Source: Isurus oxyrinchus (lineage: Eukaryota). From it: a stretch of DNA of 64,000 nucleotides. Shown here in pieces: positions 8,856 to 64,000 of this stretch. The position numbers were made by a program, and so were the translations under genes. The notes under the pieces are model-generated. The model was given only the letters and a program-made list of their open reading frames with translations. It made no database searches and was not told the DNA's origin. Positions within the stretch are counted from its first letter, which is position 1. Every line of letters starts with the position of its first letter. The stretch lies in contig JANJGN010000032.1 in the NCBI GenBank assembly GCA_026770705.1, forward strand, positions 18,600,001 through 18,664,000. The letters are read 5' to 3'.

Positions 8856-9453
8856 AAGAAAGGATTCTCTGACCCTGGGCTTTCTTGTCCAGTTTATGTA
8901 TAAGCTGTATGGAGAAGCATCAGAATGAAATAATGGCAAAAAGCTAGAAGAATGTACAGATAGTGAGATGGCTAAGTTAAGCAATGTTACAGAAAACCAG
9001 CCTGAGGAATGAAAAGAGATGTGCCCATTGAAAACTGTGACACCTTTTCAGCACTCGAAGGGTTCAGAGGAACCGTGAAATGGTTACACAGGTTTCTACT
9101 GCCCCCTAATGGTAAAATCTGCTGGGTACAATCCTCACAACCTTTTAATTCAATAGAAAAATCAGCAGGTTTAAGGGACAAAGTGTCCAGGTGCAAAAAA
9201 CCTAAAGGCTTGAACTAAGAGAAATTACATTGCATATATCTAAAGAAGTCACAAAGACAGAGTTTATGGCACAACAATAGCAATGGTGAGATCAATCACT
9301 ACTGGTACTATAATTTTTTTCATAGAGTTTACAACACAGAAACAGGCCATTTGGCCCAAATGCCAGTGTTTATGCTCCAGATAAGCTTCCTCTCTTCCCA
9401 CTTCATCTAATCCCATCACCATATCCTTCTATTCCTTTCTCTCTTATGGGAAA

Positions 9454-13900: not shown

Positions 13901-16900
13901 CTCTGCCCCACTCTGTGGGGGGATGATTCCAACAAGCAGGGCTTATAATTAGATGCAAATGTATTAAAATAACGTTCCCAATGTGCAGCGGTGGGAAACG
14001 CGGCCCGCCGTTGATGGGTGGAGCGGATGATCGCAAACTGGTTTCATGACGGTGTAAAACCGATTTTTGGCCTTCCCAGCATATTGTTCCCACCCACCCT
14101 GATGCCTGACGGCAATGGAGCTGGAAAATTCCAGCCCTGTTTCTGTGCTGTAAACATGATGTAAAGGAAAATGAACCTCTTGATGAATTAATTTTTACTT
14201 TAGTTCCCCAATTGTGCCTAAGAGAAAAGATTGAATGATCATCTCCTGAACCTGAGGGATCATTGAATTTTGGCAATCAGTCACTCTGAGGGGTTCTGGT
14301 CACACTGTTCTGTAGTAGCAAAACTTGAACAATTTTTTAGCGTTATCCCAAACTTCAGGTGCTCCAACCAGTTCATTTTGCATACAAATCAGAGATAATT
14401 TTATGACTTGGTGCTCCTGGTGTGGAACTACGCTTGTTGAGAGCGCCTATCACCTGAACAACTGTTTGGGAATCCAGGCACATGCATCACCCAATGTACT
14501 CTTGGTGGGTGTAGATCCCCACCATAAAGGCAAAATTGGGAAAGCTACCCCAAAGAAGCATGAAAAGGCAGGTAATTGCATCCCTCTTTCAGCAAGCTTT
14601 TCTGTGGCACTGGCTGTACTGTAATTGATCCATGTGACCAAACCAGCAATGATCGTAGTTTATTTCACTATATGTTGTCTTGGGAAATGTATTCTGAATA
14701 TGCCATTTCTGTATATATTTTTCATTTTGTGTTCAAAGTGAGGGCTATTGGACCTGAGAATGACAATTAAAATTCCACTTTGACTTCACCGTGTTGTGAT
14801 TGAGCACTCCAAGATCAAATCCAGAATGATGTGCCTCTTATACACCTATGTGAATATCACACACCAATCATCCTTCCGGTTGTGACTGCTTAGTGAAATT
14901 GTTATAGAACTTTTATGCTCTCGTCTATATCCAATGAGAGCTAGGTGTACATTGCCTCAAACTCCCATACAACTTTAGGTGGATTTTCATCTCCAAGCCA
15001 GGTTGGGTCAGAAGTGAATAGATAGTCTGTGTCAGCTGTGGCTCAGTTGGTAGCACATTTGCCTGTGAATCACAAAGTTGTGGGTTCAAATTCCAATGCT
15101 TGAGCACAAAAATCAAGGCTGACACTCCAGTGCAGTATTGAGGGAGCATTGCACTGTCAGAGGTGCCATCTTTCGAATGAGATGTTAAACTGAGACCTCC
15201 ATCTACCGGCTCAGGTGGATGTAAAAGATCTCATGCCGCTATTTCAAAAAGCAGCAGAGTTATTACCAGTGTCCTGGCCAACCTTTATCCTCAATCACCA
15301 TCACTAAAACAGATTTTCACATTGCTAATGGTGGGAGTTTGCTGAGTGCAAATTACCTGCTGTGTTTCATACATTACATTTCAAAAAATACTTTGGCTGT
15401 AAAGCACTTTGAGATGTTCGGTGGTCGTGAAAAGTGCTATATAAGTGCAAGTCTTTATATGTCTATTTTTAACCAACTAAGTTACTCAGCCTCCATAAAT
15501 GAAAGCAATATCACTACATTTCAAACTATGTAATTTGATTTCACAAGCCCAACATCAGCAGAGATTGAACTTGAGGTGCTGCAGACTTCCACAGGTACTG
15601 GCTTATAAAATTTCATGTAGCTCTCTTCAACTACAAGATTTTCTAAAATACCCATCAGTTTATTGAATACCATATTGTGAGATTAAGTGCTATGTTTTGG
15701 CATCAATTCAAAATAAAATTGTTAAAGTACTAATCTCAAAGCACCTATTAGGCAAATGTTTTGCGCTTTCCTAGTTGGGTAACTCAAGAGACACTAATGG
15801 AAGCTGTGTGAATGAATTTTGGTCATGCATAGTTGCAAACTGTAATGATCTCAAAAGGGACTTCAGTCATTATTAAAACCAGTTATAGAATTTAATCACC
15901 CTCTCAGACTAATTGCTTCTTCTGTTGTGCTCAGAAGAGAATTGTAAAAGTCCAGTGTATTAGTCAGACCTATGACTTGTACCATGCAGTCAGGAAAAAC
16001 TTCCTTTTTACCAATTTTATCCTCAAGGCTCATGATAGCTAGAGGTTCCATGGCTGCCAATATCCTTCTGATACCTCAAGTAGGTAGCCATTTAAGTGTG
16101 AAGCTAAGCAGGGGTAGGAAGTTGTTTGAACATGGGAAGGAAAAAACAATCATAACCAATCTTGTCCTGGTGTTGATACCGGCACACACACTTTCCAGCA
16201 GGAGTGGGAGCCCTGTCATGTCTCTCCATCAGCCCCTAGATATGGAGATGCAATGTAGCACACCCAACGCTATCCTAGCTGGGTTAGCTAACTGAACAAA
16301 GATGGCAAGGGATATCATTTAGGGCTTTTTTAAATTGTTTTGTGAATTGCTGCACCCCATGCTTTTCAGGTAATTTTAAAAATTTGCAATGTGTTTTACA
16401 GTAATTAAGTTGACATGGAGCTGGCTTGTGTTCATTGTTCTGATTCACTAGGTTGAATTTAGTACAAATGAGAAATAATTCCAACAGTTGTTTTGTAGTA
16501 CAGAACTTGAATATTGCTGAATATTATTATTGTGATCATTTGAAATTTGGCATTCTTGCATTTGTCCTGATGAGCGCAAGATGAAAAGCTTTGGCACCGT
16601 GTCTCGCTTTTCAGAAAAATGATTCCTAAACAAAACCTTGTAAAATGAGACATTTTAGATTTTACTCTTAAAAAGTTTATTGCTATGTAGCTAATTCAAC
16701 ACATTTCAGAACCTTTATAACTAGATGCTCTCCTCCAGCACTCAAAACTGTTTTCCTGAGTTAGCTCTACTCCAGTCCAAGCCACATATTTGTTTACTGG
16801 ATTTCAAGACTATTTCAGAAAATATCACTGTCCATTAACGATGGGAAATTCCTCCCCAATTATGATTGCTTAACATGTGCCTGACTGAGTCTGAAATTGA

Positions 16901-19900: not shown

Positions 19901-22900
19901 TTTTTTAAAATATATTTTTCAATTAAAATTGATATATGGCACATGATAAAAATGCCTGGTTTTCGGACAGCTCCGGTTTTTGGACAGCTGCATTTGAAAC
20001 ACTGTACTGTATTAAAATGAGGGTCATTGGCACTGCAGCACCCAGTTTCCTGCTTTTACACTCAAAGTACTTGAGGTAAGTTAAATCGAGAATTCACCTG
20101 GACTTGCTTCTGTTAGGATGAGACCACCAGGAAATTTTCACTCTCCTTCCCACAGTGAGGGTTTCTCAGGTGCACTGTGGGTAACATTCTCGCCTCTTGA
20201 GTCAGAAGGTTGTAGGTGCAAATTCCAGAGACTTGAGCACAAAATCTAGGCTGATACTCCAGTGCACAGAGTGACTGTGGGAGTACTGCATTGGCAGAGG
20301 TGCCATCTTTTGGTGAGATATTAAACCAAGTCCCTGTCTGTTCTCTCATGTGGACATGAGAGAGCCTGTGGCACTATTTCAAAGAACAGCAGGGGAGTTC
20401 TCCTCTATCCTGGCCAATATTTCTCTCTCAACCAACATTACCAGAAACAGATTAGCTGGTCATTATCACGTTGCTGTATGCAACTTGGCTACTGTGTTTT
20501 TTGCATTACATCAGTGACTGCAAAAGTGTTTCATTCATTCACTGCCTCCAGGTGGAATGACTGAGATTTATGGCAGATTTGCTCAAGGCGGGCTTACTGG
20601 TAAAATTGCGGCATTTTGTTCACTGCCTATGTGCAATGCCCTGCTGCTTTGTTTGGCTGCATGCAACTTCTGCTCCTATGGTAGATATTCTTGAAAAGTG
20701 GCGCAAACAGATTAGTGAAATACAAGTCAAGTGGTCCCTCGTCTCAGATTTTCACAAAGATGGAACACCATGTTAGCTTGGACTTATTCTTCATTCACAG
20801 ATGGATGCCAGTTTCCATCTGCAAAAAATCTTCTGTGAACCCAAATTTTCCAATTCACTGCCATGTGTGGGGTATCATAACATGTCTTGGCTAACAACTA
20901 ATCCCTAATCACAGTATGGAGAATCGGTGAAATGTTCATTGTGTCCTCCCATTACTTCTGTAGGTGGAAAATAATTTAACCAATGTGTAAAGACTAAAAC
21001 TACTTTCAATCAAACAATCCTCTTTGGTGGACCCTCAAAAAGTGATATTGTGCATGTATGACAAATTTCATGTTTCTGAAGGAGTTTGAATGCATCATCA
21101 GATCTAGAGCTGTGCTGTATGTCATTGGACATTTTTCATGCTCTTTTAAACTTCTTTTAAATGCTGAATAGTTCACCAAATGTAAAATCTGTTCATCATC
21201 TGAATACTGTTGTTTCCCACGTGCATTTCCCTTTTGCATTTATTATGCAATTTCTTATTTTCTTTAAATAATGCAAGATTAGGAGCAGCTCCCATCATCA
21301 TCAAGCATATGAACATTTGCAAAGTTGTTTGCAGCAAGCATATTTTACAGGTCGCTTTCCACATGCTGAATCTGCCATTTTATAACTTAGAAGGTATCGG
21401 TTTCTATGTTTAACCCCAGCTATTTTAAAATCTACAAATTTTCCAATTCAAGAACAAGAACAAAGAAAGAAAAGTACAGCACAGGAACTGGCCCTTCGGC
21501 CCTCCAAGCCTGCGCCGATCATATTGCCCATCAACTAAAACGTTTTGCACTTCCGGGGTCTATATCCCTCTATTCCCATCCTATTCATGTATTTGTCAAG
21601 CTGCCTCTTAAACACCACTATTGTACCTGCTTCCACCACCTCCTCTGGCAGCAAATTCCAGATACTTAGTACCCTCTGCGTAAAAAAAACTTGCCCTGCA
21701 CATCTCCTCTATAGTTTTCTCCTCTCACCTTAAATCTATGTCCCCTAGTAATTGACTCTTCCACCCTGGGAAAAAACTTCTGATTATCTATTCTGTCCAT
21801 GCCACTCATAATTTTGTAAACTTCTATCAAGTCGCCCCTCAATCTCCGTCGCTCTGGTGAGAACAATCCGAGTTTCTCCAACCTCTCCTCATAGCTAATA
21901 ACCTCCAGACCAGGCAGCATCCTGGTAAACCTCCTCTGCACCCTCTCCAACGCCTCCATATCCTTCTGATAATGTGGCGACCAGAATTGCACGCAATATT
22001 CCAAGTGTGGCCTAACCAAGGTTCTATACAGCTGCAGCATGACTTCCCAGCTTTTATACTCAATACCCCTACCAATGAATGCAAGCATGCCATATGCCTT
22101 CCTGACTACCTTATCCACCTGCGTTGCCACTTTTAGTGACCTGTGGACCTGTACACCCAGATCCCTCTGCCCGTCAATGCACAAGGGTTCTGCCACTCAG
22201 AAACATCTGGATAAAATTAGGTTATTTATACAAATGGCCATTTATGCTGCAGATTCATATATTCTGTAATAATTTTACAATGGAAGTTAAGCACATTGGA
22301 ATTCTCCCAACAAAGGGACAAAATGTATTCCTAACTGTTTTATATTATGTTTCTATGTAGGCAGTGAGTTTGATATTCTTTTGAGCCTCTTGAATTACAA
22401 CATGTGGCGTTGTGCTCATATACTACATTTTTAAGGTGATGTAACATTTGTGTGTAGTGTTTCCATCAGAGGAGATCTAAAATAACTATTTTTCTGTACA
22501 ATTGTAGGCAATAGTGATGAAGATTTTGAGAGTAATCCAATGGCTCTGCAGAGCATCCTATCGAATGTTGGAATTAATGCTTTTAATGTTATCAATGGCA
22601 AACTCAGCCTGGCACACACACTATCTATGAAAACGAATATCCAAAATTATAAGCCGTCTAACCTAAATCCAGGTATTTTCCCCATAGAGCATTTTTAACA
22701 ACTTTGAAATTATTTCAAACTGAAAACATTGTTTAGATTGGAAGCTGTGAAGAGACCATGGCTGTAGGTTTTATTTTATTGTCTGGATTTTCTTGGTGTA
22801 GGTAATAACGATGGTATGGCACTGCGGAATGCCCCATCGACTCTTGATGACGAGAATACTTTCAGCAACCCCTCTGGCAAACCTAGCATGGCAATGCGAG

Positions 22901-34900: not shown

Positions 34901-37900
34901 ATTGTGGCTTGGAATCCATTCCTTTTTCTCTCCCTTTGTAAAGTGCCTCAAAGTTTTTCTCTATTAAATTTGTTATATTCAACAACAACTTGGATCCATA
35001 AGGTTGCTAAATATGCTAAACCACCATTGTCCAAATAGCTGGTCACTTCTCAAACAAAATGTAGAAATTGCCATTCTCAAAATTAAAGAGGAGTGGCCAC
35101 ATTGGTTACCTATTTTTTATTTCAAATTAGGTGGACCTCCTGATATTCTAGATTGTTAACTGTCTTAATTACAACTTTTAAGTAGTCTTGTAAACACAAG
35201 AAATCAAAGCTGAAAAGAAAAAGACGTGCATTTATATAGTGTTTTTCACAACCAGACATCTTGAAGCACTGTACAACCAATGAAGTACTTTTGAAGTTAG
35301 TTTTGTAGTTATTGTTGCATTATAGGAAGCATGGCAGCTAATTTGTGTACAGCAAGCTCCCACAAATAACAATGTGATAACCTGTCTTTTGTTATGTTGA
35401 TTGAGGGTTAAATATTGGCCAGGACACCGGGGAGAACTCCCCTACTCCTCTTCAAAATAGTGCCAAGGGATCTTTTACATCTATCTGAGCAGGCAGGTGA
35501 AGTCTTGGTTTAATGTCTCATCTGAAAGATAGCACCTCCAGCAGTGCAGCACTCCCTCAGTACTCCATTGGTGTGCTAGCGTAGATTTTTATACTCAGGC
35601 TAGGAGCTTGAATTCAAAACCTGGTAACTCAGGCAGGAATATTACCTATTAAACCACAGCTAACACTATGACCTTCAGTGTTGTTCCATCATCTGTCGCT
35701 AGGAGGTGCACTCTCTGGGACTGCCACCAGTGTTTCCCAATTCTCTAGTAGTGTGCATATTAAGTTGTGAATAATAACATCAAAGTAAAGGTGTGATGAG
35801 ATTTTGCACTGCATATATAATGCGTATGACATTCCCTATTTTAGGATCAGATAGTACTTCGTCTTTTTAATGATTCAGAAGATCCAAATGAAGTAGAGAA
35901 AGCAACAGAGACGCCAAGCTTAAAGGAAGAATTGGAAAGACCAAAGTCCAAGCAGGATCCGAGCCTGGTTGATTTAAAACTGGTAAAGCTAAAGGTACAA
36001 GAACCAGCGTTTAATGGCTATAATTTAAACAGTAGTTACAATATAGAATATTTTGTTGACTTTCTATCACTTGAGTGTTATAAATCCTTGCTCCTTTCAC
36101 AGGCTCATTAACTTCCTTCCCTTTTCCCCCCAATTTCATATGGGAGGTGGGTGGGGAAAGAAAGAAAAAAGTGGAACTCTGTCTGTTCCCCGTCTCTCCT
36201 CCAGCATCCTTATTTTTTAAAAACTGTGAACTAATAGTTATTGTAATTAATTTATAATTCTCTCAACCTAAGGTACTAAGACTAACAGGAGTGTTTTTTT
36301 TTTAGTATTCTCTTGGTTTTAATTTCTACTGCTAATATTCCTCTTCTGCTTCTGTTTCCTGGCTAAAAGAACAGGCAGAAGAGCTGCTCAACTCTTTGCC
36401 AATACTTCTCTCTCCACTACTCACAATGACATGGCTGAGCTTTCACTGTCTCTGCATCTTTCTTTGCAATTCATGATTTAAGAGTGGAGTACTACATCAT
36501 CAATAAGTTTCATTTCCTCCAGGTTCTTGAGATGTTGTGATTTTTTTTTAATATATTTTACAGAACATTGAACTTCTTTCACAACAGCTTCAGAAAGAGA
36601 TGCAGGAGGTAAAGGTGATTGAAGAGACGCTCATAGAAAATGGCTGTGAAGCAAATGCACCTGTCTTCCTGGAAGAACATCCCAATTTGGCTGGTGCTGT
36701 CTTGAAAAGCAGACCAATTGCCACAGCCTTGAAACAGCAAGAAGCTGAAGAACGTGTTCTTCCTTCACATTGTACAGCCCTGACTTCCAAGCCAGCACTT
36801 AAGCCTGTGGACTGTTCAGTACAGACTAACAGTGTTTCTGGAGCTGCAAATAGTTTTCCTACCATTGCCTGCCAGTCCGAGATGTTGCTTCCTTCTACTG
36901 AGCTGGCTTTGAATATGATGGACATGTTGCCCACACCCATTTTCCATAGCTCTTCACGCTTGTACACAACTGCCCAAGGGTTGAAATTCCAATCCCCTTT
37001 TTGTAGTGGAAGCAGAGGTGAGCTATTTATCATAGAATCATTTATATATGTAGATTTGGGAAGTTAGGTAGCTTTTATAATGAAAGGATTGTTGTATGGT
37101 ATTACTACAGTATAATCTCCTCAGCAAGGTGGCATATAGAATTGTCAGAGCAAACTTAGCATTTGCTTGTTTATGCATGAGACTGGTGTAAACAAGGTAA
37201 CAAACTTACAACAAAATTTGCTGTGTACAAAGCTGTGGTAATATCTACCCTCCTATATGCAAGTGTGACATGGACTACTCCAGACATATTAAGCAGTTGG
37301 AGAGGTTCCACATGAGACGCATTCGGAACATCATGGGCATCAAATGGGACAGGATGAGAAATGCCATGTTATTAAGGTAGACAGCAACTCTCTATTTATG
37401 GTCTTGGACAACCTTGCCGATTAAATCAATTATCCTTCCTTCAGCACCTGCCTTCCACGTTGAAAATCCTTTTAAACTTAGAATTTAAATTAAATGACTT
37501 GTGCTGTTTCATTGTTAGTCTGATAGTTGGTTATAAAGCTAGTGAAAATGTTTCAATTCTAAGTGATTAAAGATTAAAATTACAAAGTGATTGGGATTTC
37601 CACATAAATAATGATATTGAAATAAATCACATTGCAATATCCATCACTTTGTGAGAATTTACAGTGTCTATTTTAGAGTGAGATACATAGCACCCATCCC
37701 ATCTGATTTGAATCCCTGTTTAGTCTCTGAACTAAAAGTGTCCAGCAGAAACTGGAATGTTCATTCCAACAGCTAGATCTCTAAAGAGGAACACAAGTCC
37801 CTCTAGATGTCTGGAATTATTTAAAACATTCCATATCACCTGCAAAAGCAGCATTTTTTAAAAGGATAAAGACTTGCATTTGTGTAGCACCTTATTGTAC

Positions 37901-39573
37901 ATCTCGCCAACATCTCAAAATGCTTCACATACAAAGAATTACTTTTCAAGTGCAAACAATGCTGTTATGTAGGTAACCATAGAAAATCATTTTGCACAAA
38001 GTAAGATCCCATGATAACAATAATATGAATAACCAGCTGTGCTGTTTTCGTGGAGCTGGTTGAGGGTGAAATTTTGGCCAGGACATTTTAATGAATCTTT
38101 AAACTCCACCCAAACAGGTGAATGGAGCCTTGGTTTAACATTTCATTTATCACGGTATCTCCAGCTGTGTCTGTACTACAATCGAGTACAAGCCTAGATT
38201 GAGTCCTGGACTGGTGCTTGAACACACAATTTTCTGACTTGGAGATGGGAGTGTTATCAACTGAGCAAAGTTGATCGTTGATCAATGAATAACTACTGCA
38301 GTTTGATCCCACTACTTTTATTTATGAATTGTAAAATCTGTTCATGGGTCCAATTGAGAAATGGTTCTTCCCCCAGGGAAATATAAAAGGGCAAGTTGTG
38401 GATACTATTGAAAACAAAAAATATCTCACTTGGGTACAAGTATTCATTCACCAAAAAACAGTTAATTCTAGATTTTTTGGAAAATATTTGCGTACCAAAA
38501 GGTTTGCACTGTGAATTTTCAAAACTGTTTCTTCTGACCTCCAGACAGAAGTACCCTGCTCTGGGCCAGCATGAAGCAGAGGTTTAGCCAGGTTCTTCCT
38601 GGATGTCGAAAACCTTCCCAGGAGGCATTTTTGGACGAAGAGGTTTCCTGCTGTCTTGCCCGTGCCTTCCAGTCACCTCAGATGAGAATAAATAGGGAAA
38701 GAAACTGCACCAATCCAGTAGCCAAGATACTTGAGCAACAAGAAGTTATGGTGAGTAATACCACTGCCAAATAGGAATTTCTGCATCTTATCCCTTAATC
38801 AAGTGTGAATTTTGTTCCTGGGAAGGGAAAGGTCAATTTTCCGTACAATAACATTTGTGATTAGAACATATCAATCTAGATTTGTGACTTGTACAAACAT
38901 ACTTCAGCAATAGTTACAAGTTGACCAAAATATCTCTAAAACATTGACATAAATACATAGCTTTCAGAAAATGAGATGAAAGCCCCCATGAGAAATGGAA
39001 GAGCTTCCACGTCTTAAATTCCATTTTAATCTTTTTCAAATTGGCTGAGACCAAAATGAGTGAAGCAAAGATGCTACTTTTTATAGTGGATTTCAGTTTT
39101 GGACTGTAAGCACAGTTAGTTGTGTTGTAACCATTCAACAATATGTACATGCCCCTCCAAAGTATTTTTGTATTTTTTTTTCACAACGCCTGTGTAACTG
39201 GCTTAAATTAAAATCTGTCTCTGGTGCTAAAGGAACCTGAGCACAAATCTGTGTCAGCACTTCTTTAAGACAAGGTTGCCTTTCATCCTCCTTTAAAATT
39301 TGAATAACTTTATAAAACTTTCCAGCGACCTACATCATCATCTATTGAACAGATAGGTGTATTACAAGAGTCTAGCTGGAAGGGGCAGTTGATTTTCATT
39401 CCATTTTTCATAGCCTTTCAGATTTCTTTGCAGCCTGAAACTGACCCCAGAAGCTTTTTAATTGGTATTGTCTTGGATTCTAACGCTGTATTTCTGCTCT
39501 GCAGCACTTTGTCCCAATCGAGCTGCATCACCAGCCAGAAGTGTCTCCAACAATTCCTGTTGTCCGTTTATGA
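10790..39573 (+). CDS. TROAP: Tastin (trophinin-associated protein) orthologue, 15 coding exons, about 811 aa
   Basis: Exons 10790-10836, 11789-11984, 17050-17363, 18440-18585, 22508-22672, 22802-22956, 28219-28309, 30088-30221, 32189-32276, 33308-33432, 34595-34702, 35845-35982, 36564-37017, 38545-38750, 39505-39573; all GT-AG, phases consistent, no stops. Blocks match recalled human tastin: [112 protein letters not shown]. Confidence 0.85.
11789..11984 (+). CDS. TROAP: TROAP exon 2 (NKEN, SRLPIP, PDFKKLH)
   Basis: Acceptor cttggcag, donor aag|gtaagg; overlaps ORF 11832-12038. Confidence 0.85.
12115..14165 (+). mobile_element. CR1 3' fragment hosting the Harbinger insertion and a templated duplication
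   Basis: [13 protein letters not shown] and [13 protein letters not shown]; the 3'UTR resumes at 14137 (ctgtttctgtgctgtaaa). Confidence 0.75.
12630..14136 (-). mobile_element. Harbinger transposon deletion derivative with decayed HARBI1-like transposase, in TROAP intron 2
   Basis: ORF 13374-13775 [35 protein letters not shown] resembles the N-terminus of Harbinger transposases; ends ggcagaatc...aattccagcc; CTG duplication 12627-12629 and 14137-14139. Confidence 0.85.
15030..15457 (+). mobile_element. DeuSINE, near full length
   Basis: A box tggctcagttggt, B box gggttcaaattcc, Deu core, tail gctatataagtgcaagt. Confidence 0.8.
16490..16618 (+). repeat. Short copy of the hammerhead-motif element family (see 40202-40522)
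   Basis: cttgaatattgctgaa end plus tgaaatttggcattcttg...tgtcCTGATGAgcgcaagatGAAAagctttggca. Confidence 0.75.
17050..17363 (+). CDS. TROAP: TROAP exon 3 ([17 protein letters not shown]...NKEN)
   Basis: Acceptor cattttag, donor ta|gtaagt; includes ORF 17131-17364. Confidence 0.8.
17630..17850 (+). mobile_element. tRNA-derived SINE
   Basis: A-box-like tagcttggttgg and B-box-like ggttcaatccc. Confidence 0.55.
18440..18585 (+). CDS. TROAP: TROAP exon 4
   Basis: Acceptor tgtctccag; phase 2 in, phase 1 out; donor cag|gtgctt is weak and could instead lie at 18621. Confidence 0.65.
20160..20535 (+). mobile_element. DeuSINE
   Basis: Same head and core as 15030-15457. Confidence 0.75.
21451..22195 (-). 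mobile_element. 5'-truncated CR1, same young subfamily as 104-1013
   Basis: ORF 21666-22196 nearly identical in protein to the 35-934 ORFs; 3' tail (ttcttgttct) at 21451. Confidence 0.95.
22508..22672 (+). CDS. TROAP: TROAP exon 5 (conserved [13 protein letters not shown] block)
   Basis: Acceptor ttgtag, donor cag|gtattt; phase 1/1. Confidence 0.85.
22802..22956 (+). CDS. TROAP: TROAP exon 6
   Basis: Acceptor ggtgtag, donor gtg|gtaggt; ORF 22816-23022. Confidence 0.75.
23156..24596. mobile_element. Tc1/pogo (Tigger-like) non-autonomous fold-back element
   Basis: TA|CAGTAAGTC ... GACTTACTG|TA termini; internal inverted arms about 23460-23552 versus 23966-24056. Confidence 0.75.
23558..23684. 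mobile_element. Small Harbinger-type MITE nested in the pogo-like element
   Basis: Inverted ends gggattttccagc / gctggaaaatccc. Confidence 0.7.
25795..26120 (-). mobile_element. CR1 3' fragment(s)
   Basis: acagcaaagaaacaggccattcggccc and attgaatctgcccccaccacactcaggcagtgc. Confidence 0.7.
28219..28309 (+). CDS. TROAP: TROAP exon 7 ([27 protein letters not shown])
   Basis: Strong acceptor tttcttgcag, donor gag|gtaacc; resembles human RASAYL..PARASCFSRL. Confidence 0.85.
30088..30221 (+). CDS. TROAP: TROAP exon 8
   Basis: Acceptor ttccctttcag; donor ttg|gtctgt uncertain; phases fit the neighbours. Confidence 0.65.
30828..31425 (-). mobile_element. CR1 LINE 3' fragment
   Basis: ORF 30921-31289 [14 protein letters not shown]...[14 protein letters not shown]; atagaaac tail repeats. 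Confidence 0.9.
32189..32276 (+). CDS. TROAP: TROAP exon 9
   Basis: Acceptor ctctcttcag, donor aag|gtagat; phase 0/1. Confidence 0.75.
32798..32853 (+). repeat. G-rich tract (G-quadruplex potential)
   Basis: At least five runs of 5 or more G separated by short linkers. Confidence 0.7.
33308..33432 (+). CDS. TROAP: TROAP exon 10
   Basis: Acceptor ttttcag, donor gtg|gtcagt; ORF 33289-33480. Confidence 0.75.
34595..34702 (+). CDS. TROAP: TROAP exon 11
   Basis: Acceptor ttcctacag with upstream ctaac branch motif; donor atg|gtgggt; 36 codons. Confidence 0.75.
35215..35665 (-). mobile_element. DeuSINE
   Basis: Reverse complement of the Deu core (aatattggccaggacaccggggagaactcc). Confidence 0.8.
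35845..35982 (+). CDS. TROAP: TROAP exon 12 ([13 protein letters not shown])
   Basis: Acceptor ctattttag, donor ctg|gtaaag; 46 codons. Confidence 0.8.
36564..37017 (+). CDS. TROAP: TROAP exon 13 ([15 protein letters not shown]...)
   Basis: Acceptor ttttacag, donor gag|gtgagc; ORF 36600-37067. Confidence 0.85.
37150..37350 (+). mobile_element. RTE-clade LINE fragment
   Basis: Translates to [21 protein letters not shown], typical of the RTE ORF C-terminus. Confidence 0.65.
37865..38272 (-). mobile_element. Degenerate DeuSINE
   Basis: ttggccaggaca and ccttggtttaacatttcat match the reverse Deu core; L2-like tail at 37870. Confidence 0.65.
38545..38750 (+). CDS. TROAP: TROAP exon 14 (conserved C-terminal block)
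   Basis: EAFLDEEVS...[15 protein letters not shown]; donor atg|gtgagt. Confidence 0.9.
39505..39573 (+). CDS. TROAP: TROAP final coding exon ([22 protein letters not shown])
   Basis: Acceptor tttctgctctgcag; HFVPI completes the motif equivalent to human CFIPV; TGA 39571-39573. Confidence 0.85.
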   Translation, partial: HFVPIELHHQPEVSPTIPVVRL

Positions 39574-40201
39574 GGAGCAAACAAGGCTTACCCCCGTTGT
39601 TATGAAGTTCAGTATTTTCGTTCCTTTTCTTCATCTGTATCAATGCCTCTAATTCTGGTGAGGAGACAGGTTTAGTTGTGGACGCTTCAAGATCTTGATT
39701 GACTGTGCTTCTGGGTATATTACCAGTAGGATAGCTGCTTTTCAATATCCGTGGTGATTCCTTGCTAAAACAGAAAAGCTGTGCTTTATCTACGCAATAC
39801 TCAAGTTGTCCCACTTGTAGAAGGGAACATTTTGTGATCAATCAACTATATAAACTACCTAATTAGCACAAGTATCCTAGTGGCATAACCTGCTGTCTTA
39901 TGGTCAGTTTCATCACTGTAGAAATTGTCTAATATTTAAAATACATTTTCACTTTCATCAGAAATGATGCGCTCTCTGACATTGAAGACTTTTGCTTTTG
40001 ATTGTGAGTTCCAGCATTAATTACTTTTTTGTCCTGCTATCCTTTTAAAGGTCTCTAGCTAAAGACGACAGATTAAACTTTACTCCTAATGCGTGTACTC
40101 TCATAATTAACACTAACACTTTAACCAGTTGGTTCAGATCTTTTTGTGGGGCTTTGTTTTCTCAAATTTGTGATGTGAAAAAGATAAGATTAGAAATGTT
40201 C

Positions 40202-40522
40202 CTTCAATATTGCTGAAACCTTTTGTCTTGTACTCATCAGGACAAACACAAGAATGCCAAATTTCAAAATATCACAACAGTTTATATTACTGGAGAAAAG
40301 GGTGCTGATTGGTTAGCAAGTCAACTCTGGCCAAGGTGTTGCCATGGAGAAAGCGATGGGAAACTACAGGCTCCCCAAAGGTCAACTTGCCAACCAATCA
40401 GCACCCTTTTCTCCTAAAATATATATTGTGATCGTTTGAAATTTGATATTCTTGTGTTTATCCTGATGATTGCAAGAGGAAATGCTTCGGCAACATGTCC
40501 TCTCTTTTCAGCAATATTCAAG
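40202..40522. mobile_element. Palindromic element of about 320 bp with a hammerhead-like motif in each arm
   Basis: Arms are reverse complements (cttcaatattgctgaa / ttcagcaatattcaag; ggagaaaagggtgctgattggtt / aaccaatcagcacccttttctcc); CTGATGA..GAAA cores at 40219-40244 (-) and 40459-40492 (+). Confidence 0.8.
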
Positions 40523-41369
40523 AAATGTCACTGCAAATTTTTTGAAGTTGTTTGTTTAAACATCACGGAACTCTTGCAGTTTCACAATCTTGAATTGTAT
40601 CAGTTAAATGTAATATTCTCTGTAAACAGAAAGCAGGGGTGGCAACAATATGACTACTGCCACACAATTAAGGGAAGGTATTGGCAGTTTTCCAACTGAA
40701 GACCTTAAGTGTATATAAGTGTATATCAGTCACATGACTGATCCTGCAGTATAAGGACAAGATTTTTTTTTCTAACTGTCCCAAAGATGTAAAAATTTCT
40801 CTGTAAGTTGGATTGCTGGCCAAATGTAAAATAACCTGTTAATACTGTTCCCAAAGTCATTTGGAGTTGAATCAGATTCAAACAGGAGTGTTCAACTTTT
40901 AAGATCTAACCAGAATTTGTCTTTTGTGCCACCACTAAACCATGCTTACGAATGTTTTAAAAAGTACCTGTCCTACATCTCTCTATTGTTTGGTGTCGCT
41001 ACAACCTAATATGAGGCATCATATTTTCACCAGTGCTAATCTTCATTAAGGAAATATGGCCTGACACAAATTTAGTGATGTCTTGGTTTCCTGTTCCCCG
41101 TTGAAAGGAACATCAGAACGCTTTCCTCTCAGCCAGGGTTGAGTTTTAATACTTGATAATCCCAGTTAATAATTTACTGATAAGCAAATGACCTGAATTT
41201 GAATATCAGTAAAACTGTTCCACTACACTTTTTAGGCAGAAAATATTTGGGTCCTGAGTTCATCCCTTGATTTTGGTTAGGCACTTATAGAGCCCTACAA
41301 GTTACACAACAAATTGAAGCCCCACTTAATTATTTTTAACTTTAAATGGTTGGCTCCTCCTTCAGCTTT

Positions 41370-41919: not shown

Positions 41920-42000
41920 ATTTTGTATGCCTTGTACATTTTTGTATATGTAACTACTATGCAAATAAAGCTTTATTATGAATACTTCTGTGTTTCTTTT
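41920..42000 (+). terminator. Polyadenylation region of TROAP
   Basis: Cluster of TGTA motifs, AATAAA 41964-41969, downstream GU/U-rich tctgtgtttctttt. Confidence 0.65.
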
Positions 42001-42156
42001 GAAATGGGATGTATTTAACAAAGAACACAGTGAAACTTAGTTTATATCATTGCACCTGCACTAATCGATGGTCACGATAAAGAGACATCAAATTTACCCC
42101 CCCCCCCCCCCCACGGCCTGGAAACGTGCCAGTGGCAGAACGTAAAATTCTGGTCC

Positions 42157-42353
42157 AAAACAGAAAATGCTGGAAAAACTCAGTAGGTCTCAGTGTCTGT
42201 GGAAAGAGAAAGAGTTGATGTTTTGAGTCCACATGACCCTTATGAAACGTTAACTCTGTTTCTCTCTCCACAGATGCTGTCAGACCTGCTGGGTTTTTCC
42301 AGCATTTTCTGTTTTTGTTTCAGATTTCCAGCATCTGCAGTATTTTGCTTTTA
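42157..42353. mobile_element. Palindrome of two Penelope terminal segments
   Basis: aaaacagaaaatgctggaaaaactcag / ctgggtttttccagcattttctgtttt; homologous to 8022-8100. Confidence 0.8.
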
Positions 42354-45159
42354 TCATTAAAATTCTGCTCAATAGTTTATTTTCTACTAATCACTCCAAA
42401 AAGTGCTGACCTTTGCTGGGATTCCTGAAATTTAGTACCTCGCCCAAGTGATCTTTGCTGAGGTGTGATTCTCACGGGTAAATGTTGGTAGGTTATTTGG
42501 CTATGGTTTCACATCTGAACCCAGCTGCATTCTCTCATCTGAACTTCACATGTGCTCTTTCCAACAAGAGTCAAGTGGAAACACTGGTTGATTTCCTTGC
42601 CGCTCCCCCCCCTCCAACCGCCAGCCAACTTGGCTGAGGGACAGCTCTGACCAATATGGTGGCCCCACCACTACCCAACCTGAAACTAATTCAACACAAA
42701 ACAACAATCAAAGTTCCATTCTGTAGTGTTCAGCTGCTTGCCTATGTGTGTCTAGTATCTGTTCTTTGTGTGTGATTGGTTAAGCCTGGATGTGGTGACA
42801 GAAAAAGAAACTCAACATAGGCAAGCAACTGTATGCATGACAGCAGACATTTTAAAGCATCATTTCTGCATATCTCCAAAGCTCAAAACCCAACACATTT
42901 AAACAGCCAACACAGAGCCCTGATTTAACGGAACTCCTTAACTTATATTGGTTCAATCAAAACGCCTCATTACTGCACTAAAGGGTAGCAGTCCATTGTA
43001 TAACATGATATATCTTTATAGTATGGCCCGTGGAGTAAAACACATGGCCTTTTGAGCTGAATGACCTGCTATTGTACTGTACATACAATGTAATCTATTT
43101 CCTGACTCTCTGGCCTACTGTATCTCAAGGCAAATTCTTGTGTGCATTACTAATGCTGTAACTTCAGGTCCCTCTGATAAAAGCAGCAAGATTAGTTTGA
43201 GAAAGATACCTGATCAAAGTGGCAACACAAGGCAGCACATGAATTTCAAACAGATGGTATTCTTGGCTGTTTCCAAGGATTATGAATGATTGCAAATCCA
43301 TTTTACATGGGGAGATTGTACTTTAGGGTGAAGACCAACCATCAGTAGCTAGTTAACCGTCCCTCTCTCGCCTCTGCAATGTGTATTAGGATTTCATTTA
43401 ACCTCCAACCAATTTATTTTCTCCTAAATAAAACAAATTTTATAATAGTTCTGGACATAAAGTGATTGCAGTTATCAATCATGTGCTATCGGGACTTGTC
43501 TCTACATCCTGCTAAGGTTTGGCCATGTTTTGTTTCTCGTAGCCATATGGATCTTTTACATAGGAATTGTCCGCACACTAATTACAATCTCCACATATTT
43601 TGAAATGGAACGGGAAGTTGGGTTGCCAGAAGATGGTGCTGTTCACAATTTTTTTTAACTCGCTGGTCTCTGCCCTGTTTCTTTTTTACAACCTGGGTGT
43701 TGCCAACACCCTCCGTATTAACTTAAATTTTTCAATATTCAGTAATTAGTATAAATGGTTGTGTGTATAATTTGAGTAACTGTCTAACAGAAATTTGTTT
43801 CAATTATTTACATGAGAATATATGATTGCAAAAAGTGGCTAATGTTTTTAATTGACTTAAATAAGATTTAAAAAAAATAAAAGCTGTATCTATCTCAATA
43901 CTATCTCCCATAACTGTGCTACTATGAAGATGATCAGATATTTACCACAGAATAACTTCTGCTCTGTGTTGTAGATTAGAGGTTTCCCCTGGGTCCATTG
44001 TATATATTTGTGCGATGTGCTTCTACCGTCCAGAAACCTGATGTTGGAATACACTGGTAGCTGTCGGCCATTTCTCGCATCTTTTATCATTAGTCAGCTG
44101 TCTGCCTTGAAATTACAAAGTGAGGTCTTGGTTTTAGCAGAGGTATTTACCAACTTTAGAAAGATTTCACAGTAACCTGTTATCCCACAGTATCATTTCA
44201 AGTACCACAGTGTATTAATTACATGGTGTATTAAATAAACTCTGTATCTAAGAATAAGGGTTGAAAAAGGACATAATTATGCCTGTGTTAAGCTGCAACA
44301 TATGTATGAAAATTTATGATTAAGATATTTAATAAATAGAATATTAGCCCCTTAATTTCTCTAACAGACTTTCACATTTGTGGAAACTTCCTTCTATTGT
44401 TATGATACCAATGATGGTGCTTAATATTGTACTTTAGTATCAAAACAACAATAGAAGTACTATGGTGAGGTGAATGTGACCAGGACTACATTTCTAGAAA
44501 TATTCTAGAGAAGTTGGATTATCTATATTGTCTCATCAATACCCTGGAACCTAATCACAGCTACATAGTGAATCCATATCATTGGTAGGAAAATGTTGGT
44601 AGTCATTCAGTGAGGAATGAGTGGTTGTATTGCAATGTTGGGTTCTTCCTCCTCTACTTGTGGCCTCTGGAGTATTATTTATAGCCAGCCAGTCCAGTGG
44701 AATACCTGTAATACAATAGGTATCCCATATTGTTAGGGCAACCAGAGACCTTTGTAAAATTGAAGAGACACCTCTGAGAGGGTGATTTGCATTTACCTGC
44801 TGACATCTTGTGCCAGACCTGGCAGAGACCAGATGTTTATATGCTGCCTTCTGGAGGATGGTCCCTTTAAGCAACTTTAGGGACCAGACTCCTGCAGCAA
44901 CAGAGATTTTCCAACCCCCACAAGCAGAAACCTTCCAAAAATATTTATATTGAGATTACCCCAGGGAATTTGTTGAGGTCAACAGCACAGCTATGTGTTT
45001 TTCATTTGCTGCTTGGCAATGGAGTTTAAGCAAAGTTTCAGCTGGAGGTAATTGCTTTGACTAGAAGATTGGTTTCGCCATTGTAGGGGATACACTCTGA
45101 CTCTTGACTTTTAACAGTTAGCTGTTCTCCTTGGTGATAACACCAACTTCTACAATGCA

Positions 45160-52197: not shown

Positions 52198-52462
52198 CAA
52201 AGGCAAATACAGTGAATGCTGGAAATTTGAAATATAAACAGAAAATATTGGAAATACTCAACAGGCCAGACAGTGTCTGTGGAAAATGAAACAGTACACA
52301 TTCCAGGTCAATGACCCTTCATCAGAACTCCAATGGGATGATGATGCAAGCCAAAAGGGGGTAGTAATGGACAGATAAACAAAAAATGGCTCTGAAACAT
52401 AAACTCCATTTCTCTCCACAGATGCTGCCTGACCTTGAGTGCTTTCAGTATTTCCTGTTTAA
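52198..52462. mobile_element. Second Penelope-end palindrome with hammerhead remnant
   Basis: Arms homologous to 42157-42353; minus strand AGTT CTGATGA AGGGTCATTGACCT GGAA at 52301-52329. Confidence 0.7.
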
Positions 52463-59091: not shown

Positions 59092-61889
59092 ATGTCCTTC
59101 CGAGAGGTAAGGAAAGGGGTTTAATTCTCCCCACCTAATCAGTCAATATTAGCAGCTTGATGGCAAGTAGTGTTTGCTTATAGTTTGTTCATCATAGAAT
59201 CCTAAATGATCTTGTTCAAGCTTATTTTAACAAGTGATTTGAAGTGTTCACTGTTTTTCTGCAGGTTACGGCTTTTAAGCATGCATTTTTGAACTATCCA
59301 GAGATTTGTTTTAGTGTGGCAGACTAAAAAAAAGGGGGAAGAATAGATCGATAGAGGGTAGTGGAGTGACATCAATAGGTGAGTCAAAAGACAACTAAAA
59401 TTAGATACTTTAGCTTGAAAGGCTAAAATAATGAATAAATACAGGCAGATGGGTTGCAGGAGAGAGAAGTAGCAGAATATGTAGTATTGTGAAAGGACAT
59501 AGATAAACAAAAAACAATGGATGGATGTTGAAACTTACATTAAATCTGACAAATTAACAATTAAATTTAATTAACAATTAAGTCTGACTTAAATGGATAT
59601 AAAGAAGCAACTCAGAGACAGTAAAACACAAAAGGATTGGCAGAAGTGATATTTGTGTAAATGAATACGATGCACATAAATTTAATGGTTAAAAATTCAT
59701 ACAACTGTTAGTTTGAGTTTTTTTACAAGGTTAATATAATGTATACTTTATCCTTTTGTACTGTGTAATTGGGTAAAACAACTCAATTTTCTTTGTATAT
59801 TCATTTCTCTCCAGTAAACAGATCAATTGACATGTCCAGCTTAGCAGAGCTAATATTTAGTTATTGAATTAGATATTTTAATGATGGAGAGGCTGGCATT
59901 CATTTTCCAAGTTCTCAGATGGATGCAGAAGTGGCATAGATCGTGCACATATCCGGTAAAAATTCTGTAATTGTACAGATGGTACGTAGCTCCTGTAGGA
60001 TAGCTTAAGAGGTTTACCTTTCATTGTTTAATCTTGACCCCATCATTGCTGCTGAGCTGACAGATTGGAATTCAGTCATAGTAGTAATCGGTATACATTG
60101 TAAGTTACATAAACCTCAACATGGGACAGTGAGAGCTTGAAGGTCTGTACTGGAGAATCTGCTATTTCCCTGTGTAGTGCTTAAAGCAGATATAAAACCT
60201 GTCTAATCAATCTGTGTATGTCTTCTGTAAAATGGTTCTGTGTTACATGTGTAATGACATTGCCTTTCATGATGTTTGTAATGTAGATAGAAAGAAGTGA
60301 AGCAGAGAGAGAAAAAAAAGATGGAGAGAACAAATCAAATTTGTAAAGATGTCAAGAGAAAGATAGACAGAACAAGGGAGTGATAGAAAGAACAAAGTAA
60401 AAAGTAGAAACCCAGGGATATAAATTCATTTTGGGATAGCGAATCAGCTGCCTATTTTATGATCCAACCAATTTTCTGTCTGACAGGCAGACGATTTATA
60501 TCGCACAATATTTCTGATTTATCTCAGTGGTGTAATAATAACTCACGGACAGTACAACCACAAGTGTCTACTGGCATGATGGGCAAGTCATCTTGCTGCT
60601 GGTATAGACTCTTCAGGAAAGAGAGAGAAAGACAGAAAGTGACATAGAAAGAGAAAAAGATAGAAACAGAACATCACTGGCTGATGTGAATTGCTTAAGC
60701 ACCTGGGTGAACAGAGAACCAAACCAAAATGTTGGATTGTACAAGACCAGAATTGAAACGTTTCCCTGTAACTTTGTGCGTAATATCTTTAAGCCATTTC
60801 TTAACTGAAATATCGACTATCCAAAGATTTCACTTATCTTGCAAGATAACATCAACAATTTACTGATCAAAAACTTGCATGTTCGGGCAGAAAGGCCATT
60901 ACAAGAAGCTTGGAGTTAACATCATTCTTAGAGCTATCCACGTGTAGAAATCCAGGATTTGTCCACTAGGGCACTTAAGACATCATCTGGTATCTATAGA
61001 ACATTTATGTGGGGGTCTCGGGTCTGGGCTGCATTCTTGTGAAAAAACCTGCAGGCTTCACGAGATATATAAAATATTTTTTGTGAGGAAGGCCATAGTC
61101 CTCATTCAGGAATCCATTCAAAATCACTCTTGTAAGGAAGTGTGAAACCCACTGCTAATAACAGAAAGTTTGTGTTTTTGGTGGGGCAATGGGAGAGGGC
61201 AAGATCATATATAAGTAATGATAGCAATAGCAGCAGAAGTCAATGGAATGAGTGTTGAAATTAGCTGAAATGTCATCCTTGTGGTGAAATGAAGATTAAG
61301 GGGAAGCTTGGTGAACATTTGGGTGGAAGGAATAGAGATTATGCAGATAGGGCTAGATGAAAAAGGGTGGGAGGAGGCTCGGGTAGAACTTAAACACAGC
61401 CACAGACCAGTTCAACCAGATGTCCTGTTTCTGTGCTGTAAAATTCTATATAATTCTACATAAAGTTTGCAAGGAAATAAAATCTAAAAGGGAAAAGAAC
61501 TTCCGCAGTGAGACTGTCTTTCTTTGTCTTAGGAGTTGAGGAGTCGCAGGTTCTGGCGTTCAGTCTTAGCAGAGCTGGTTGGTTCCCTGGTCTTGGTCTC
61601 AGTTATTTTGGGTGCCTCTGCCCCTGGACAGGAAGATGGAGTTCCAGTACTGATGCAGGTGGCTGTAGCTGCTGGATTTTCTGCTGTCAGCCTGATCCAC
61701 TGTTTTGGAGAGATTAGCGGTGCCCAGGTAAACCCAGCTGTCACACTCGCATTCTTGTGCACCAGGAAACTGGATTTCCTCCAGTTTGTGTCCTACCTTT
61801 TGGCTCAGTGTCTTGGAGCTGTGATTGGATCAGGGATAATCTACATGTCATTGCCAATCAAGTCAACATCAAGGTATTTAGTCAACATG
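59092..61889 (+). CDS. AQP14: Aquaporin-14-like channel, first two coding exons (59092-59106 and 61533-61889); gene continues beyond the window
   Basis: MSFRE|ELRSRRFWRSVLAELVGSLVLVSVILGAS...HCFGEISGAQVNPAVT...AQCLGA; first NPA motif; splice sites gag|gtaagg, gtcttag|, atg|gtgagt. MIP family is certain; the AQP14 subtype rests on recalled similarity (GASxPG, HCFGEISGAQVNPA). Confidence 0.8.
61270..61462 (+). mobile_element. CR1 3' end fragment
   Basis: ttaaggggaagcttgg...cctgtttctgtgctgtaaaattctat. Confidence 0.7.
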
Positions 61890-63134
61890 GTGAGTCCATT
61901 TCTGTTACTGCATTTCCTATAATATTTTTCTGTTGATTTCCAATAGAGATGCATTTTCCCAAAATGGAGAATGGAAACCAAACAATAAAACACACAAAAA
62001 AATCAATTCACCAGGGTTGTTGCAAACAAAATTTTGTTTTTTGGCAGGTGGCTGCTTTTAATGCCTATTCCTATGAAGATGGAAAGCCTTCAGGCCAATT
62101 CAATAAGTATTAAGAGTCAATCATGTCCTAAGGACTACGGTCACATGCAAGCCAGACAGGTTCCTTTCCTGAAGGGCATTTGTGAACGATGAGGATTGCA
62201 GCACCAATCTGGCAACTTTCATAGTCATTTTCCCACAAAGTACTAGATTTATTCAATTCTCAATTTACTACATTGGGATATGAATTTGCAATCTCTGGGT
62301 TAAATAGTCTAGTGCCATAACCATTGTACTACTGTGCCCTTGTAAACTACATTAACAGTCAAGGTTTTGGGTCCCTGATTTCCTTCCATTAAACTTCCTC
62401 CAAGTGGTTTTTCTACCCGCTCTTCCTCAGTCCCAATCTTCAATTAAATATTTTCATGTCACATTTTCTCTACTCATTCCCCCTCCTCTCCTCTCCTATA
62501 TGCTTCCTTTAGATTAAAGTTTCCAATAGATCAAAGATAAAAGATTAAAGATAAGGATAAAATTAGATTAAAGTTTCCAATCTACTCTGTTACGTTTTAA
62601 TGTAATACACTCTCCAAATAAGAAAATGGCAGCGTCAATCGCTCTGTTTTGTTGCCCTCACTAATGTTCATTATGCACATTTATGCAGCAAAGAGGAGCA
62701 GCGATATACTCCAGGAAAATCCCTGGGAAAATATGCCCTCAATCTTCAATTATACAAACAACATCTACCATCCAAACCAGTCCTCAGTGACACTAAACAA
62801 TTTAAAAGCAGTAATTTAACATGAATTTACTCAAGTGAGAAGCAAAAAGTGAGACTGACTCAATGTGGGAGTTTGGTTTTGAACACGAGTTCAGTTTAGA
62901 TGTTGATTACCTTTTAGTTGTTAACTCACAGAAACCAGCAACTGGTTTAAACCTGTAAGTGAACTTGGAACTGAGGGACTGGTGGCTAGTTGTTAACTGT
63001 TAAATGTATAAGTACAGCTGATTAAGCTGGGAAAAGGGCAATTCAAACTCTGGCACTTGGCTACATATTAAACAGGACGCGAAGAGATAAATTAGTGAGA
63101 GCACCCATAAGTTATATATATTTTATAGTATATA

Positions 63135-64000
63135 GATTTGCGCAAAACCACCGGCCACAATGGGGGCTTCTCACACCATATTGTCCCAAACCTGCCGCAT
63201 TACTTATGCATTCCTGGGAAACATGCCTTTCGATGGCGGGTGGGCTCCCATTCGTCTGCCACTCCATCATCTCACCACTTCATCATGCCGGGCACCATAT
63301 TTAAAGTTTAGCCACATGCACACCTCTCAGTGCTTCCAGCCCACGGCTGCTGCAAAGAAGACATAGCCCTGATAGGCCAAAAGACTGCAGCCCCCGAGTT
63401 TTATGACGTGTCCCTCGAGCGTCTTTTAGACTCAGTGGAGGCTCACCGTGATGTCCTGTACCTTCACTCTGGCCACAGGATGGGCAGCAATCTCACTAAT
63501 CTAGCTTGGGAGGTGGTGGTCAGTGCCAAATCCCTGCAAAAGAGGGTGGCCACCCAGTGCCAAAAAAGGATGAATGGTCTCATCCGCTCCGCCAATTCAC
63601 TCTTCTCATCACACTCAACTCACACACTCACAAACCCATCACACATCCACAGGGATGTCACACCTCAAGGGACAACACCACTAACTCTCACACACACTCA
63701 CATCTCCATCAGGCTCATACCCTCTGGAGCTTGTGTCCTCAGCCTATCCATGTCTCCACTCGCCACACAAGTATTCCTTGCAGTGTCGTGTGTCCTGCTC
63801 ACACTCTCTCCATCTGTTTTCATGCAGGAGAAGCTGGCTCACAACAGCAGGGAGACGTCCCAGACTGGGGGTGGAGTGGCCCACGTTAGGCCCCTCACTC
63901 ACTTTGAGGAGTGAGCCATCGCACTGACTGGTGAGGACGTGGACAGTGCCTGTGGTGATGGTGAGGTCAGCGGTGAACACCCACGTGAGGATCCTGCACC
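63135..64000 (+). mobile_element. Harbinger element, Myb/SANT-like DNA-binding gene half (runs off the window)
   Basis: ORF 63330-63914 APEFYDVSLERLLDSVEAHRDVLY..AWEVV..QCQKRMNGLIR; 63135-63230 resembles the left end of the 12630 element (atgcattcctgggaaa shared). Confidence 0.8.

Follow-up and report, generated by a model that had tools for sequence, protein, structure and literature searches.

The window analysed here, a stretch of 64,000 nucleotides of an Isurus oxyrinchus contig, contains a palindrome of about 320 bp, each arm of which carries a sequence resembling the core of a hammerhead ribozyme. How this structure arose, whether its hammerheads were or still are ribozymes and whether it has a role in the transcript of the host gene are the questions raised by this locus. 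A sequence-only reading had placed the palindrome in the putative TROAP 3'UTR and had taken it for a member of a non-autonomous, MITE-shaped family with a ribozyme on both strands, possibly partnered by Penelope-like elements (PLEs). Sequences related to the palindrome are referred to below as family A, and a second family found in the same window as family B; the features are collected in Table 1.

Table 1. Positions of the features discussed in the text, numbered from the first nucleotide of the window.
Feature	Position	Strand	Basis
Family B 5'-truncated PLE with endonuclease C-terminus	8020-8865	-	protein similarity, 3' end match
Inverted 16-nt family A 3' end	16506-16521	-	exact match; best of 9024 control stretches, 10 nt
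Second family A locus, troap intron 2	16528-16620	+	82% identity over 94 nt, E 3e-20
troap last coding exon and stop	39505-39573	+	protein mapping
Direct repeat, left copy (probable target-site duplication)	40192-40199	+	exact 8 bp
Family A whole insertion, head-to-head pair of element 3' ends	40200-40520	both	folding, arm alignment
Left-arm hammerhead relic	40207-40244	-	core 40240-40234 intact
Mirror of the CCAAT/TATA-like block	40277-40321	-	read from sequence
Centre of the palindrome	40322-40384	both	arm alignment: 15 identities, 9 mismatches, 9 gaps
Block with CCAAT box and TATA-like stretch, 5' of right hammerhead	40385-40429	+	read from sequence
5-nt stretch complementary to loop II (40472-40476)	40451-40455	+	kept in 3/3 copies
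Right-arm hammerhead relic	40459-40492	+	helix, core and descriptor analysis
Direct repeat, right copy	40521-40528	+	exact 8 bp
Best polyA signal, AATAAA	41964-41969	+	4 UGUA upstream, most GU-rich downstream, 7 candidates scored
Family B head-to-head mini-palindrome	42153-42357	both	same 3' end (42243-42312) as the 8020-8865 copy

The assignment of the host gene to TROAP is borne out by protein mapping: the Carcharodon protein maps to the window as 13 exon matches between 10790 and 39570, followed by a stop codon at 39571-39573. At the exon 36612-37028 identity reaches 96% with a Carcharodon and 95% with a Cetorhinus protein, as befits a lamniform shark, and the catshark orthologue of this gene carries the name troap. 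The N-terminal part of the shark troap proteins (11787-11984 and the next exon) gives a weak Pfam match to FAM161A/B, below the cut-off. The palindromic element lies approximately 630 nt downstream of the troap stop codon and upstream of the best polyA signal, AATAAA at 41964, which among seven polyA-like hexamers scored combines four upstream UGUA motifs with 61% G+T downstream. An early transcript end at ATTAAA near 40072, named beforehand as an outcome that would leave the element out of the mRNA, has the weakest context of the seven (no UGUA, 44% G+T). These sequence signals make it plausible that the element is part of a 2.4-kb troap 3'UTR, as it probably is. Elsewhere in the window are the first exon of an aquaporin/MIP gene (61533-61922, + strand; Pfam MIP, E 8e-26), two inverted LINE reverse transcriptase fragments of 95% identity (283-1006 and 21463-22195), which belong to a young family and which we take to be CR1/L2-like, and two ORFs that by eye resemble Harbinger-type transposon proteins (13374-14276 and 63312-63914), although a Pfam search with 13377-13799 of the first gave no match.

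The palindrome at 40200-40520 is a real and old insertion. Its arms are 82-90% complementary in blocks, and its minimum free energy (MFE) of -150.9 kcal/mol (z -15.3) was equalled by none of 100 shuffled sequences, so that the imperfect palindrome described by the sequence-only reading stands; the letters that it quoted for both arms are likewise present at their coordinates. The motif shared by the termini extends to 40202 and 40522. An exact 8-bp direct repeat flanks the element; repeats of at least 8 bp occur at 0.17-0.2% of 3000 random position pairs (p about 0.002) and repeats of at least 6 bp at 1.7-3.3%. Because the right copy shares 2 nt with the terminal motif, the duplication is read as 6-8 bp long. 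The element ends are asymmetric about it, with four extra nucleotides on the left in the 8-bp reading and two in the 6-bp reading, for which decay could account. Both hammerhead motifs face outward, i.e. the two halves are arranged head-to-head, and the arms measure about 145 nt (with a further 21 deleted) and about 170 nt. On the inner side of each motif lies a block with a CCAAT box and a TATA-like stretch, a possible pLTR promoter as judged from its letters; the CCAAT block is identical between the arms at 29 of 31 positions. The arms diverge in the centre, the tip of the hairpin being formed by a short imperfect palindrome near 40334-40360.

Both hammerheads of this insertion are damaged. 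In the right arm, helix I (40459-40462/40489-40492) contains one mismatch (A-C), the core at 40463-40469 is followed by a helix II of two pairs (40470-40471/40477-40478; U-G and U-A), GAAA occupies 40479-40482 and H17 is C40488. The pair at 10.1-11.1 is U-G, G10.1-C11.1 having been lost, and the helix III palindrome is broken, such that helix III of a homodimer would pair at four of six positions. In the left arm AAAA stands in place of GAAA through a change of G12 to A at 40224; G12 is the general base of the hammerhead. The left arm has also lost the 3' strand of helix I, together with its cleavage site, to a 21-nt deletion, which falls between two 11-nt near-repeats that are identical at nine of 11 positions in the right arm. 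The description of a ribozyme motif in each arm is thus not confirmed, the left lacking G12 and a cleavage site and the right bearing lesions in all three helices.

The folding of the whole palindrome points the same way. Read-through RNA of 40200-40520 is predicted to form 112 pairs, with a longest helix of 23 bp, in which the left arm engages the right-arm core (40463-40469; probability of being unpaired no higher than 0.03) and the pairs of helix I have a probability below 1e-5. With both arms crippled and the sense one sequestered, the idea of ribozymes on both strands is not supported for the present locus, and the ribozymes at 40.2-40.5 kb are almost certainly inactive today. With both motifs facing outward, transcription from either side always produces the antisense arm before the sense one; it would therefore be only an internally started transcript that could fold the ribozyme, and the internal CCAAT and TATA-like boxes would fit such transcripts. 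Provided that the 3'UTR reaches 41964, the long double-stranded RNA proposed earlier is upheld as a predicted hairpin of about 112 bp. This hairpin, a possible substrate of ADAR or of dsRNA-binding proteins, would be the only likely effect in the mRNA, where it would also bury the sense core, the antisense arm being transcribed first, and it is probably incidental.

A better preserved relative is found in troap intron 2. The similarity at 16528-16620 contains the third motif copy claimed by the sequence-only reading, 16563-16596, which is the best-preserved hammerhead of the family: its core and its perfect 6-nt helix III palindrome are intact, H17 is U, and the lesions comprise a G-U pair at 10.1-11.1 and a C-A mismatch at 10.2-11.2. 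Without any correction this copy, whose core starts at 16567, combines a complete core with a helix I of 4 bp, a UH site and the palindromic helix III. An inverted 16-nt family A 3' end sits 6 nt upstream of the locus, which on this match reads as a very unequal head-to-head pair of 16 nt inverted and about 93 nt direct. Two further candidates at this locus were rejected: a target duplication, AAATGAGA, 30 nt outside the ends (p 0.12, not significant), and a 3' tail of the 30-40 bp type beyond the terminus (similarity p 0.14-0.16). Searches of the 64-kb window with the three arms (nhmmer) returned no further copy below E 1.3, and the evidence on family A consists of two loci and three arms, all within this one window.

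Whether the ancestor of these three copies carried a hammerhead was judged at the level of the family. The invariant core, C3-U4-G5-A6-N-G8-A9 with G12-A13-A14, is intact in two of the three (40463 and 16567). A strict descriptor, with minimum lengths of 3 bp for helix I and 2 bp for helix II, is passed by none, and a relaxed one, which accepts a 1-bp helix II but demands the palindrome, by the 16567 copy alone; the latter descriptor matched four times in 24 Mb of simulated sequence, i.e. 0.17 per Mb or about 0.02 per window. Helix II begins directly after A9 in family A and has 2 bp at most. The pair at 10.1-11.1 is G-C in one copy and G-U or U-G in the others, position 10.2 is U in two and C in one, and the helix III palindrome is perfect in the 16-kb copy and broken in the other two. 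Three helices around the core come together with A15.1-U16.1 and an NUH site only in the reconstructed ancestor. The CpG-corrected consensus proposed by the sequence-only reading is reasonable in that two copies show TG/CA at 11.1-12, as CpG decay would leave it (the CpG observed/expected ratio of the window is 0.24), but positions 11.1 and 15.2 are three-way splits among the three copies. When the uncorrected majority consensus was scanned with the descriptor, no match emerged, two columns of the motif having no majority, and an exact-pattern scan of a prokaryotic genome collection returned none. The covariance-model scan that had been suggested likewise gave no Rfam hammerhead match, at the gathering threshold across the window or at E up to 10 across 40100-40650, a test that is insensitive here, as it also misses the family B motif at 8.1 kb; an Rfam match to MIR821 was set aside as a generic long-hairpin resemblance (42.6 bits against a cut-off of 249). 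Covariation is not significant with three sequences: 30 of 33 cells are paired, but 116 of 500 shuffles reach the same value. The core columns vary at one of 11 positions and the others at nine of 31 (Fisher p 0.25), which gives no sign of selection on the core. Taken with the rarity of the relaxed descriptor by chance, the 16567 copy supports the earlier proposal of a type I hammerhead whose helix III is palindromic, and the family A ancestor very probably carried one.

One further element of structure is shared by all three copies. The five nucleotides at 40451-40455, 3 nt upstream of helix I, can form 5 bp with loop II, and 15 of 15 cells are paired across the copies. By chance such complementarity has a probability of about 0.01 in the case of the two copies with Watson-Crick pairs throughout, and of 0.06-0.1 in that of the third, values to be read with the non-independence of the copies in mind. 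The MFE structure uses this pairing as a hairpin that buries the core, and the contact could be either a pseudoknot or an inhibitory hairpin.

The main reason for the reading of family A that we prefer is supplied by a neighbour. Family B is a second family in the window for which an enzyme is at hand: the endonuclease C-terminus encoded at 8865-8515 on the minus strand shares 59% identity across 122 aa with a whale shark protein whose GIY-YIG match exceeds the cut-off and whose partial reverse transcriptase (RT) match falls below it. The 8.5-kb ORF itself has no Pfam match, and its identity rests on these homologues. The hammerhead of this copy (8113-8082) is of the standard PLE type, with the extra A and a 5-bp helix II, and its 3' end lies near 8020. 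The same 3' end recurs in a 205-bp palindrome at 42153-42357, 1.6 kb from the family A palindrome and just past the troap polyA signal. It carries a 3' tail on one arm only and is flanked by a 10-bp duplication (42143-42152/42358-42367), a length reached by none of 2500 random pairs. Another inverted pair of family B, at 52199-52461, has a tail, a decayed hammerhead core on its left arm and no convincing target duplication (best 5 nt). A PLE family in this window thus makes MITE-shaped palindromes flanked by duplications, and with one of them only 1.6 kb away we read family A in the same way. Neither this second family nor the 8-bp repeat around the family A palindrome nor the inverted 16-nt end had been noticed in the sequence-only reading. 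Two solo family B 3' ends (11370-11491 and 12483-12601) flank troap exon 2; they are 97% identical including their flanks, which would mark them as a recent local duplication or conversion.

On balance we consider it probable that the family A palindrome is an old insertion of inverted PLE pLTRs, the membership in PLEs, the promoter role of its boxes, the cleavage by its ancestor and its inclusion in the mRNA being inferred. Two heavily 5'-truncated copies of the 3' end of the element, the pLTR, with promoter-like boxes, type I hammerhead and terminus in that order, would have been joined head-to-head in a single event, and the pair would have become flanked by a target duplication of 6-8 bp. 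The hammerhead of the active ancestor would have depended on a second copy, with which its palindromic helix III would pair in tandem transcripts. Neutral decay would have followed insertion, CpG changes and a single deletion at a microhomology accounting for most of it. Published PLE insertions match this layout: an inverted 5'-truncated copy beside the 5' end is typical and a tail of 30-40 bp optional according to the accessible text of PMC8557442, and PMC3846280, in the part available, describes inverted pLTRs with duplications of 8-10 bp and junction palindromes, head-to-head being the most frequent inverted arrangement. An inverted, 5'-truncated copy joined head-to-head is seen at both family A loci, and a duplication within this variable range of about 8-10 bp at one of the two (8 bp). 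The ATG within the core (40466 and 16569) opens a frame towards the 3' end of the element, interrupted in the 16-kb copy by a stop that arose through a CpG-type change; this ATG counts in favour of a PLE because the start of PLE ORFs is placed at the hammerhead in the available portion of PMC11167929. The same source links the tail to the use of two start sites by the RT, and describes hammerhead cleavage as protein-assisted and unnecessary for insertion in vitro. The Penelope-like link drawn by the sequence-only reading gains from the head-to-head layout and the duplication; its appeal to a special non-autonomous family does not, as head-to-head truncated PLE pairs suffice for a MITE shape, family B has the same structure at 42153-42357, and no new kind of element is needed where PLE truncation gives the same layout.

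Several observations count against a PLE. Helix II has 2 bp, there is no unpaired base after A9, no tail has been demonstrated, and the similar arm lengths at 40 kb would also fit a fixed unit. The expectation of a Penelope partner sharing the family A ends was disappointed in the window and in protein searches: tblastn with 12 proteins tied no RT or endonuclease remnant to family A, the only PLE sequence being that at 8.5-8.9 kb, but truncated copies would in any case lack the ORF of EN+ PLEs, which encodes a telomerase-like RT and a GIY-YIG endonuclease. Translated arms, used to look for an autonomous partner, gave one match among 117 candidates and one among 1.84 billion representatives, both to the same 191-aa protein. 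This protein, which has no Pfam domain, is matched internally, at residues 121-151, which suggests that it is another family A copy read through by a gene caller.

The strongest competitor, which we nevertheless regard as unlikely, is a fixed palindromic unit that is non-autonomous and mobilized by PLEs, the 16-kb locus then being an internally deleted copy. Such a unit would account for the similar arm lengths (about 145 + 21 deleted versus about 170 nt), the same terminal motif at three of four ends, the arm-divergent centre beside a block identical at 29 of 31 positions and the lack of a family A ORF in the tblastn search of the window and in the protein searches, and non-autonomous pLTR derivatives are known from the accessible parts of bioRxiv 10.64898/2026.07.22.740005 and PMC8557442. 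Against it, a PLE family of autonomous type in the same window yields the same shape by mere truncation, neither ribozyme is predicted to fold in the full palindromic transcript, leaving no benefit to the unit, and the animal non-autonomous retrozymes published in the available text of bioRxiv 10.64898/2026.07.22.740005 are tandem direct repeats. A bolder form of this idea, which we hold to be distinctly doubtful, would make family A an undescribed shark non-autonomous retroelement: a fixed hairpin unit that uses PLE enzymes and carries a hammerhead new to PLEs (2-bp helix II, 5-bp loop II pseudoknot and dimer-forming helix III), active only from internal outward-facing promoters and switched off in host read-through RNA by the antisense arm. 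If this were true, the switch-off would explain how such a unit is tolerated in 3'UTRs.

That the palindrome is instead a DNA-transposon MITE, with long terminal inverted repeats, an 8-bp duplication and a hammerhead likeness due to chance, seems very improbable. The long inverted arms and the 8-bp direct repeat would suit it, as would the empty Rfam scan, insensitive as this is here, and the non-significant covariation (116 of 500 shuffles). Yet the 16567 copy has the palindrome, the UH site and a helix I of 4 bp along with its core, a combination expected by chance at 0.17 per Mb, and the terminal repeats do not abut the duplication symmetrically, with 4 extra nt on the left. The termini also do not, as we understand those superfamilies, start like hAT, P or Mutator ends, which speaks against a MITE.

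We give very little credence to co-option of the element as a regulator in the troap 3'UTR, be it through a ribozyme that can be switched or through a dsRNA or editing element under selection. Its position past the stop codon and ahead of the best polyA signal and its 112 predicted pairs would allow such a role, for which the hammerhead of Clec2 3'UTRs is a precedent (PMC6155905, in the part available). The arms, however, differ at nine of 57 nt, about as many as separate each of them from the unlinked copy (9/57 and 8/57), so that there is no sign of maintained pairing; the sense motif is damaged in helices I, II and III; and its one candidate dimer partner on this strand is intronic, at a distance of 24 kb, with pairing at five of six positions. 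Identity with Crypton or Eulor/UCON elements was considered as well, solely by the descriptions in the accessible portions of PMC3212892 and PMC5753468.

As a probable old insertion of inverted pLTRs, the palindrome can be set beside known systems. The minimal PLE hammerheads described in the available text of PMC4209133 lie in pLTRs and resemble family A in their CUGANGA...GAAA...UH core, short helix I, U-rich 5' flank and palindromic helix III in need of a dimer; their cleavage is weak and dimer-dependent, and dual minimal hammerheads on opposite strands, 100-700 bp apart, were already reported there. Their consensus has an unpaired nucleotide between A9 and G10.1, which family A does not have, and a G10.1-C11.1 pair in a helix II of 3-8 bp (never under 3 bp in 56 examples), whereas helix II of family A has 2 bp; family A further differs in its possible Watson-Crick loop II contact and in having no linked ORF. 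As there is no unpaired base after A9, we class family A as working like this consensus and not as belonging to it. No chondrichthyan is among the 56 hammerheads aligned in that part of PMC4209133, and none of the titles and abstract openings covered by our literature search described family A or a shark PLE hammerhead, nor did any paper in it name both the hammerhead ribozyme and Callorhinchus. PLE hammerheads of sharks thus appear to be little described, although family A may already bear a name in repeat databases, the usual record of such families.

With EN+ PLEs (Penelope/Poseidon and Neptune; accessible parts of PMC3846280, PMC8557442 and PMC11167929) family A shares the head-to-head truncated copy, the junction palindrome, the duplication of 8-10 bp in those elements and the ATG at the hammerhead; it departs from them in that both of its halves are shorter than 200 nt, and the PLEs have an optional tail of 30-40 bp. 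Family B is alike in its mini-palindrome with duplication, its outward 3' ends and its hammerhead about 30-60 nt from the terminus, and unlike in its unrelated sequence, standard hammerhead, linked endonuclease ORF and visible tail. Non-LTR retrozymes, reported from one chondrichthyan in the available text of PMC7229834 and bioRxiv 10.64898/2026.07.22.740005, are also short non-coding repeats with type I hammerheads and a relation to pLTRs, but they lie in direct tandem arrays from which monomers or circles are released, whereas family A at 40 kb is one inverted pair and its copies are either inverted or 24 kb apart. In its most likely reading the locus is one more decayed end pair of PLE type and of little weight, of a kind easily mis-filed as MITEs. 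Natural hammerheads often have a stem II of only 2 bp, and a pseudoknot between stems I and II is predicted in about 40% of them (Perreault et al. 2011, PMC3088659, in the portion available); as both features are so common, the loop II contact of family A could be a pseudoknot too, although unlike theirs it is predicted from three decayed copies and could be an inactive hairpin. Should such a hammerhead cleave, its 2-bp helix II and possible pseudoknot would add a compact natural architecture, and it would bear on the role of PLE hammerheads, which cleave poorly alone (PMC4209133) and are dispensable for insertion in vitro (PMC11167929) according to the accessible parts of these two reports.
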